From Escherichia coli (GTDB lineage Bacteria > Pseudomonadota > Gammaproteobacteria > Enterobacterales > Enterobacteriaceae): a DNA stretch of 26,066 nt. Shown piece by piece: positions 14,174 to 14,272 of the stretch. The notes below the pieces were generated by a model that saw only the letters and a program-made list of their open reading frames with translations, was not told the DNA's origin and ran no database searches. The translations under genes and the position numbers were made by a program. The DNA lies in NCBI RefSeq assembly GCF_003334255.1, contig NZ_QOWU01000064.1; one strand, written 5' to 3'. Position 1 is the stretch's first letter; every line of letters starts with the position of its first letter.

Positions 14174-14202
14174 GCCTGATGCGCTACGCTTATCAGGCCT
14201 AC
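14174..14202 (+). repeat. REP element (GCCTGATGCGCTACGCTTATCAGGCCTAC)
   Basis: Typical REP palindromic unit sequence, located after the srmB stop. Confidence 0.8.
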
Positions 14203-14237
14203 GTGGCTCATGCAATATATTGAATTTGCACGATCTT

Positions 14238-14272
14238 GTAGGCCGGATAAGGCGTTCACGCCGCATCCGGCA
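14238..14272 (-). repeat. REP element in inverted orientation (GTAGGCCGGATAAGGCGTTCACGCCGCATCCGGCA), forming a BIME-like pair with 14174-14202
   Basis: Second REP-type palindrome in opposite orientation ~36 bp from the first. Confidence 0.8.

Follow-up and report, generated by a model that had tools for sequence, protein, structure and literature searches.

Between the convergent genes srmB and yfiE of Escherichia coli, two inverted repetitive extragenic palindromic (REP) sequences occupy a short spacer, and this locus raises the question to which kind of element they belong, how this element got between two stop codons and what it does there. We analysed it in a stretch of 26,066 nucleotides from the E. 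coli contig NZ_QOWU01000064.1 (in the following "the window", with position 1 as its first letter), which is K-12 sequence and in this region 100% identical to W3110 and MG1655. Taken as a whole, the spacer is very probably best explained by a bacterial interspersed mosaic element of type 1 (BIME-1) that was inserted with duplication of a terminator hairpin, that forms structures in 3' untranslated regions (3'UTRs), that carries an L linker of the integration host factor (IHF) type, and that provides landing sites for insertion sequences.

The REP pair consists of (T)GCCTGATGCGCTACGCTTATCAGGCCTAC at 14173-14202 and GTAGGCCGGATAAGGCGTTCACGCCGCATCCGGCA at 14238-14272, separated by a 35-nt linker at 14203-14237. 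The left one is a Y-type REP (GCCTGATG...ATCAGGC), inverted relative to the Z1-type REP on the right and placed tail to tail with it. In a repeat search, the REP tails appeared as a 14-nt inverted repeat with 93% complementarity and a spacing of 35 nt, and the internal palindrome of the right REP as well as the head-to-head match between the REPs were likewise recovered. Positions 14174-14203 are identical to the REP query GCCTGATGCGCTACGCTTATCAGGCCTACG of PMC11208160, and the right REP differs from the query TGCCGGATGCGGCGTAAACGCCTTATCCGGCCTAC of the same paper in one loop base (1 of 35 positions). Each REP folds on either strand (-12.9 to -21.3 kcal/mol, z-scores -2.8 to -4.6), with -13.2 kcal/mol for the Y REP hairpin, which contains an internal mismatch, and -20.9 and -21.3 kcal/mol for that of the Z1 REP. 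In the predicted folds both stems are broken by an internal mismatch or bubble, and a stem-loop with an internal stem mismatch is required for binding by the REP-associated Y1 transposase TnpA-REP (PMC3333891).

According to its definition (PMC3333891), a BIME-1 is a single-copy element with one y and one z1 REP, which are inversely oriented and connected by a long, well-conserved L linker that frequently harbours an IHF site. The srmB/yfiE repeat has inverted Y and Z1 REPs and a long linker with the conserved L motif, and there is one such unit in the window. It is therefore a canonical BIME-1 and belongs to a known class, also called RIB ("reiterative ihf BIME") or RIP ("repetitive IHF-binding palindromic" element), from which it does not differ in any essential respect: like other members it has an approximately 35-nt conserved L with an IHF-type core, is single and extragenic, and lies at the 3' ends of transcription units. 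This agrees with the first-pass annotation, which had proposed an inverted, BIME-like REP pair in the convergent 3' region of srmB and yfiE; the position is confirmed by the list of open reading frames (ORFs) and by the W3110 and MG1655 annotation. The alignment to the REP consensus that it had named as a check also turned out in its favour. Within the 26 kb there are exactly two matches to the tail consensus CTTATCMGGCCTAC, on opposite strands and with 0 mismatches each, at a chance expectation from shuffles of 0.20 matches even with 2 mismatches allowed. This result and the family copies elsewhere rule out chance palindromes. The proposed coordinates, 14174-14272, cover the REP-L-REP core, whereas the full repeated unit, which is non-coding and nearly palindromic, runs from 14151 to 14301; the insertion footprint, the duplication of the terminator hairpin and the A and B motifs at the outer ends had been missed. 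The features of the element and its borders are the following, with the basis of each assignment in brackets.

14126-14150, no strand: left copy of the terminator hairpin, srmB-proximal, AATGCCAGGTTTAAGCCTGGTATTA (direct repeat; folds)
14151-14301, no strand: whole BIME-1 unit of about 151 bp, consisting of A, Y REP, L, Z1 REP and B (copies and empty alleles)
14151-14172, no strand: A motif, outer left arm, AAAGTGCTGGCAAACGCAAAAC; family consensus TGAGACTGATGACAAACGCAAAAT (anchored comparison of copies)
14173-14202, plus strand: Y-type REP in iREP orientation with CTAC at its end (published REP query; repeat search; hairpin)
14192-14202, plus strand: natural target ATCAGGCCTAC of the insertion sequence IS621, with the CT core at 14199-14200
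14203-14237, no strand: L linker, GTGGCTCATGCAATATATTGAATTTGCACGATCTT (Rfam ES036 match; definition in PMC3333891)
14213-14225, minus strand: IHF-like core ATTCAATATATTG (WATCAANNNNTTR with 1 mismatch)
14238-14272, plus strand: Z1-type REP with GTAG at its start and the loop TTCAC (repeat search; consensus match; folds)
14273-14301, no strand: B motif, outer right arm, TGAATAAAGCGCACTTTGTCGACAAGTTA; family consensus TGAACAAAGCGCACTTTGTCAGCAATCTGA (anchored comparison of copies)
14302-14326, no strand: right copy of the terminator hairpin, yfiE-proximal, AATGCCGGGTTTAATCCCGACATTA (direct repeat; folds)
14327-14331, plus strand: T-run of the ancestral terminator; it overlaps the stop codon of yfiE, which is the complement of TTA at 14330-14332 (sequence; empty alleles)

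The way in which the element entered the spacer can be read from alleles that lack it. The two hairpin copies are a 25-nt direct repeat with 80% identity and a spacing of 176, and the BIME-1 unit plus one hairpin copy makes up a 176-bp segment that is not present in empty alleles. In these (e.g. UTI89 and O145 RM9467) the spacer is exactly 176 bp shorter and contains a single perfect hairpin, AATGCCGGGTTTAAGCCCGGCATT, followed by the T-run. In Salmonella enterica, found through a search with the C-terminal 110 amino acids of SrmB, a single orthologous hairpin, ATGCCGGGTT-CGTT-AACCCGGCAT, together with T7 fills the 17-nt srmB/yfiE spacer; Klebsiella-like and other contigs, in which yfiE is not adjacent to srmB, are uninformative as outgroups. 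Since Salmonella possesses a single hairpin with a T-run, the empty state is ancestral and BIME-1 is the insertion. Together, these comparisons show that BIME-1 inserted in the shared terminator hairpin of srmB and yfiE, a bidirectional-terminator-like structure of hairpin and T-run, and that the whole 25-nt palindrome was duplicated, with one copy on each side. The duplication is direct, since asymmetric hairpin loops (TTTAAG, GAGAA and others) keep one orientation in both copies, which rules out an inverted duplication of the hairpin. It can also be ruled out that the hairpins are part of the mobile element, because they are locus-specific and a single copy stays behind in the empty alleles at four loci. 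At the srmB/yfiE site of Escherichia sp. E1V33 (L074, 2310-2690), two hairpin plus BIME-1 units stand in tandem and are followed by a third hairpin; there, a module of 176-178 bp was presumably amplified by unequal exchange between the hairpin repeats.

The same footprint is found at other loci. A scan of species-representative genomes with an L-core pattern yielded 86 DNA stretches, mostly from Escherichia and Pseudocitrobacter, with a few chance matches or contaminant contigs among them. Of the 36 full-length copies, 19 have flanking direct repeats above the 99th percentile of the controls (1,244 mismatched left/right flank pairings), corresponding to 16 of 28 independent sites; the clustering into such sites is approximate, as L072, a different locus, was wrongly merged with the srmB/yfiE site. 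The repeats are locus-specific palindromes of 13-30 nt that adjoin the element ends, with an A-run before the left and a T-run after the right one. Moreover, the 34 nt adjoining either end fold much better than control windows (median -12.8 versus -5.5 kcal/mol, P ~1e-7). Loci with a flanking hairpin duplication include L013, L017, L029, L035, L037, L039 and L050, and further L053, L057, L060, L062, L065, L071, L080 and others. For four loci, srmB/yfiE, agp/yccJ, yqjG/yqjF and cmoB/torZ, the existence of empty alleles with one hairpin was verified. At agp/yccJ, K-12 is empty and 89 E. coli genomes as well as E. whittamii are filled. In E. whittamii (L060) the cmoB/torZ hairpin has been duplicated around a standard BIME-1, whereas it is empty in some E. 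coli (L103); in K-12 (L104, 274-437) it holds another BIME-1-like insert of about 129 bp, which is oppositely oriented and has no hairpin copy on its left. This suggests repeated, independent targeting of one hairpin. A comparison of filled and empty states for the E. whittamii locus L065 was uninformative, since the sequences that flank it do not occur in collinear order in E. coli.

The length of the duplication equals that of the local palindrome, which points to breaks at the two feet of the stem and to an integration directed by structure. According to this mechanism, staggered strand breaks would occur at the feet of the target stem, with integration at the base of a cruciform or hairpin, and the product would show the order A-run, hairpin, BIME-1, hairpin, T-run. 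While the hairpin-duplication footprint itself is well supported, the structure-directed mechanism is uncertain, and we propose only tentatively that BIME-1 integrates at existing palindromic hairpins, usually stems of intrinsic terminators, and duplicates the whole palindrome, rather than inserting semi-randomly. The usual suspect for the mobilising enzyme is TnpA-REP, the RAYT (REP-associated Y1 transposase), for which the data on the yafM product were obtained in vitro and with other BIMEs (PMC3333891). However, Y1 transposition of the IS200/IS605 type is described in the literature as free of larger target duplications, and the footprint reported here differs from the duplication-free peel-and-paste expected of an IS200/IS605-like RAYT. 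Recent papers still call the dissemination of REPs and BIMEs "poorly understood". The accessible descriptions of BIME-1 mention neither a duplication of terminator hairpins nor terminal inverted repeats formed by A and B, and the footprint is not described in the accessible literature, which does not cover the primary papers of the 1990s, among them that of Bachellier et al. (1997), which reportedly described "excisions of a whole BIME-1"; we therefore cannot claim priority.

There are likenesses to several known mobile systems. In REPINs, as in the window copy, two inverted REPs can pair as one long single-strand hairpin, and both are non-autonomous repeats with presence/absence polymorphism. 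In contrast to Y1 transposition of the REPIN/RAYT system, which is described as proceeding without larger duplications, BIME-1 is flanked by whole-palindrome duplications. Bacterial miniature inverted-repeat transposable elements (MITEs), some of which contain IHF sites (e.g. Correia elements), resemble BIME-1 as non-coding elements of about 150 bp with an internal IHF-type site, terminal inverted repeats, which are imperfect in BIME-1, and flanking direct repeats of target origin. However, the duplications made by MITEs are short and of fixed length, whereas those of BIME-1 vary and coincide with the local palindrome, and a review states that REPs do not show MITE signatures. A third likeness concerns the outcome only. 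[quoted passage not shown] Spacer integration by Cas1-Cas2 duplicates the partly palindromic CRISPR repeat, and in E. coli IHF takes part in this process. There, the IHF site lies beside the target, whereas in BIME-1 it lies within the insert, and there is no evidence that Cas1-Cas2 handles an element of 150 bp.

The comparison of copies also defines the full unit. The consensus of 36 full-length copies from other loci has the layout TGAGACTGATGACAAACGCAAAAT - Y - L - Z1 - TGAACAAAGCGCACTTTGTCAGCAATCTGA and comprises 154 nt; with the ends defined in one way throughout, so that they reach about 3 nt into the flanking hairpin repeats, the individual copies measure 152-155 bp and the window copy 154. 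Over its outer 16 nt the consensus has imperfect terminal inverted repeats, with a match at 13 of 16 positions, and as a single strand it folds end to end with -36.3 kcal/mol (DNA parameters). A REP doublet in which Y pairs with Z1 is the minimum-free-energy structure of the minus strand and the centroid structure of the plus strand. In E. coli genomes, other places match 14146-14297 of the window at about 90%, and such similar places number hundreds of thousands, with a median of at least 40 per genome. Over 70 BIME-1 copies from other genomes of Escherichia and Pseudocitrobacter share the exact L-core TGCAATATATTGAATTTGCA, while among the species-representative genomes no match to the exact 20-nt L-core pattern was found in Salmonella, Citrobacter or Klebsiella. 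Three Pseudocitrobacter species (L023-L039, L079-L082) possess many BIME-1 copies with the L core and the A/B motifs of Escherichia, and mostly TTTAC as the loop of the right REP. E. coli-type BIME-1 copies were also seen on tiny contigs or one contig of a metagenome-assembled genome assigned to Desulfosporosinus, Methylobacterium, Collinsella and Alkalicoccobacillus (L019, L048, L068, L069), which look like enterobacterial contamination. In L086, L091 and L092, BIME-1-like units form tandem arrays with a period of about 115 bp, fused A/B motifs and no intervening hairpins, and these arrays may be an atypical BIME form built from Y, L and Z1.

The first-pass annotation had also regarded the REP pair as a strain-variable marker and recommended a comparison with other E. 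coli genomes. This was borne out by a census of 5,426 complete E. coli genomes, in which four alleles add up to 5,423. The intact BIME-1 allele occurs in 2,525 genomes (at least 80% of a 241-nt query). The empty allele, which covers 86% of a 1,101-nt query, accounts for about 2,445 genomes or about 45% (4,970 genomes with at least 80% of this query, minus the 2,525). In 298 genomes the Y REP is interrupted by IS621, which lies at the CT of ATCAGGCCTAC, and in 155 the loop of the Z1 REP is interrupted by IS1397, after 14257. The junctions read ...ATCAGGCCT/IS621/CTACGTGG in strain P15-385 and GGCGTTC/tgaactgc for IS1397 in strain TUM20902. ATCAGGCCTAC has been reported as a natural target of the IS621 bridge-RNA recombinase (PMC11208160) and the window site is an exact match, while IS1397 is known from the literature to insert into REPs. 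Both REPs of the srmB/yfiE copy are demonstrated natural landing sites of IS621 and IS1397.

What the element does in its spacer depends in part on the two genes and on where their transcripts end:

12787-14121, plus strand: srmB coding sequence (CDS) with the stop codon TAA at 14119-14121 (ORF list; srmB annotation in W3110 and MG1655, 100% identity)
14330-15211, minus strand: yfiE CDS, encoding a LysR-family regulator (882 nt annotated in W3110 and MG1655; the mechanical ORF extends to 15256)
14492 (MG1655 2714601), plus strand: Rho termination region, antisense to yfiE (PMC7815308, supplementary file 2)
13853 (MG1655 2713962), minus strand: Rho termination region, antisense to srmB (PMC7815308, supplementary file 2)

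Both genes converge upon a 208-bp spacer, and BIME-1 lies between their stop codons. Since Rho termination regions are located beyond BIME-1 on both strands, we infer that both convergent transcripts run through the element, and the REPs and flanking hairpins are probably part of both the srmB and the yfiE 3'UTR. Convergent transcription appears to overlap through the whole spacer and into the opposite gene, as the Rho regions lie inside srmB and yfiE. Each of the flanking hairpins folds on both strands, the left one with -13.7 kcal/mol on the plus and -9.3 kcal/mol on the minus strand, the right one with -9.3 kcal/mol on the plus and -12.8 kcal/mol on the minus strand. In K-12, each copy thus folds more stably on the strand of the gene next to it; the bias is caused by one transition per copy, which leaves a G-U pair on that strand and an A-C mismatch on the other. 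This suggests that, once duplicated, the two copies came to divide their work at the RNA level, but very few substitutions are involved. Only the right hairpin retains the ancestral T-run, and its plus-strand stem contains a C-A mismatch.

These observations are compatible with the following course of events. The proximal hairpin, deprived of its U-tract by the insertion, would be read through by both convergent transcripts, which would continue through BIME-1 and be finally stopped by Rho. The stems of the REPs and hairpins might then resist 3'-to-5' exonucleases and act as partial attenuators. Setting stable 3' ends and influencing readthrough would be the most likely role of such stems. In the literature, REPs are generally modelled as exonuclease barriers after Rho termination and are described as dual terminator-stabilisers of 3'UTRs, and according to a 2026 preprint convergent gene pairs with REPs show higher expression genome-wide.

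A further putative function concerns IHF. Stabiliser, gyrase site, IHF site and attenuator had all been listed as possible roles in the first-pass annotation, but this list is generic to REPs, and the association specific to BIME-1 is that of IHF with the L motif; strong gyrase binding has been attributed to BIME-2 (PMC2817692). By virtue of its family membership alone, the L motif of the srmB/yfiE copy probably binds IHF.

Several findings weigh against our interpretation of an inserted BIME-1 that acts in two 3'UTRs. The IHF core motif is not above chance in the window (19 matches versus 21 expected). The curated Term-seq list of PMC7815308 has no 3' end inside the spacer. With regard to the insertion, the outgroup settles the deep polarity only, and the empty E. 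coli alleles could either be ancestral or have arisen secondarily by precise deletion between the 25-nt repeats. Finally, about 45% of E. coli have no BIME-1 at srmB/yfiE, so that any host function must be dispensable, and terminal REPs were found to have no general effect on half-life (2026 preprint). The last two points would also be expected if the element were purely selfish or neutral DNA, that is, a harmless insertion without host function that preserved the terminator by duplicating it, any RNA or IHF effects being incidental. A footprint resembling transposition and the further 8% of genomes that tolerate an insertion sequence in a REP fit this explanation as well. However, the otherwise divergent alleles of K-12 and R32_14_1F differ in the A-Y-L-Z1 core (14151-14272) at only 1 of 122 nt, compared to 17 of 149 nt in the flanks (hairpins, B motif and gene ends), as would fit a constraint on the core, its concerted evolution or its recent exchange. 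Moreover, the flanking hairpins preserve their pairing by compensatory changes: across alleles, the left hairpin changes from GCCGGG/CCCGGC to GCCGGG/CCTGGT and then to GCCAGG/CCTGGT, and another allele has TCCGGG/CCCGGA. Together with the strand bias, these changes hint at selection on RNA structure. The higher expression of REP-containing convergent gene pairs also speaks against mere neutrality, and we regard this explanation as rather unlikely, if still the most serious competitor.

It is improbable that the REP pair itself serves srmB and yfiE as a bidirectional transcription terminator, even though the two genes converge on it, its hairpins are stable on either strand, and 78 REPs are located within predicted bidirectional terminators (2026 preprint). 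An intrinsic (Rho-independent) terminator is a GC-rich hairpin directly followed by a U-tract, and the REPs do not qualify, since a U-tract is not present after either of them; a scan of 13900-14600 revealed no intrinsic-terminator-like site. The Rho termination regions beyond BIME-1 on both strands imply readthrough, and the ancestral hairpin with its T-run is a separate structure that flanks BIME-1. More improbable still is an independent small RNA (sRNA), either ES036/CssrF on the minus strand or an naRNA-like RNA. The Rfam model ES036 (RF02751, CssrF) does match 14195-14237 on the minus strand over its full length, with 49.9 bits against a gathering score of 37.6, and naRNA4 (RF02564, CssrE) gives a match below its threshold (38.2 versus 59.5 bits). 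However, the 43-nt ES036 model coincides with the multi-copy L motif plus a REP tail, and hence any BIME-1 would match it; naRNA4 derives from an array of the BIME-2 type. Since no sigma-70-like promoter was detected in the scan of 13900-14600, we take the ES036 match as a label for a BIME-1 copy and not as evidence of an sRNA gene, and any such RNA would be more simply explained by processing of the yfiE 3'UTR. The inserted BIME-1 with its duplicated hairpins remains our preferred explanation.

As to the surroundings of the locus, window coordinates correspond to MG1655 coordinates minus 2700109, and the MG1655 RefSeq record NC_000913.3 (2705000-2720000) contains CDS features only, without annotation of REPs or BIMEs there. 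The window matches of Rfam models above the gathering score include ohsC, rncO, AsrC (antisense of rseC) and a truncated 5S rRNA at 411-487, 3900-4114, 6897-7728 and 25963-26066, which are expected K-12 features unrelated to BIME-1.

A REP pair as such is routine, as catalogues of BIME-1, RIB and RIP in E. coli go back to the early 1990s. The duplication of a whole hairpin, found here and at 15 other independent sites, is a testable mechanistic clue on how REPs spread. If true, a structure-directed insertion would explain why BIME-1 is found at 3' ends and how termination survives the insertion. The polymorphism of filled, empty and IS-disrupted alleles at srmB/yfiE is unusually clean, with near-equal numbers of filled and empty alleles that differ by exactly 176 bp. 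The locus is therefore a natural experiment, in which the effect of BIME-1 on two convergent 3'UTRs would be measurable without engineering. Moreover, the same 99 bp carry natural targets of two REP-specific insertion sequences, including that of the IS621 bridge-RNA recombinase.

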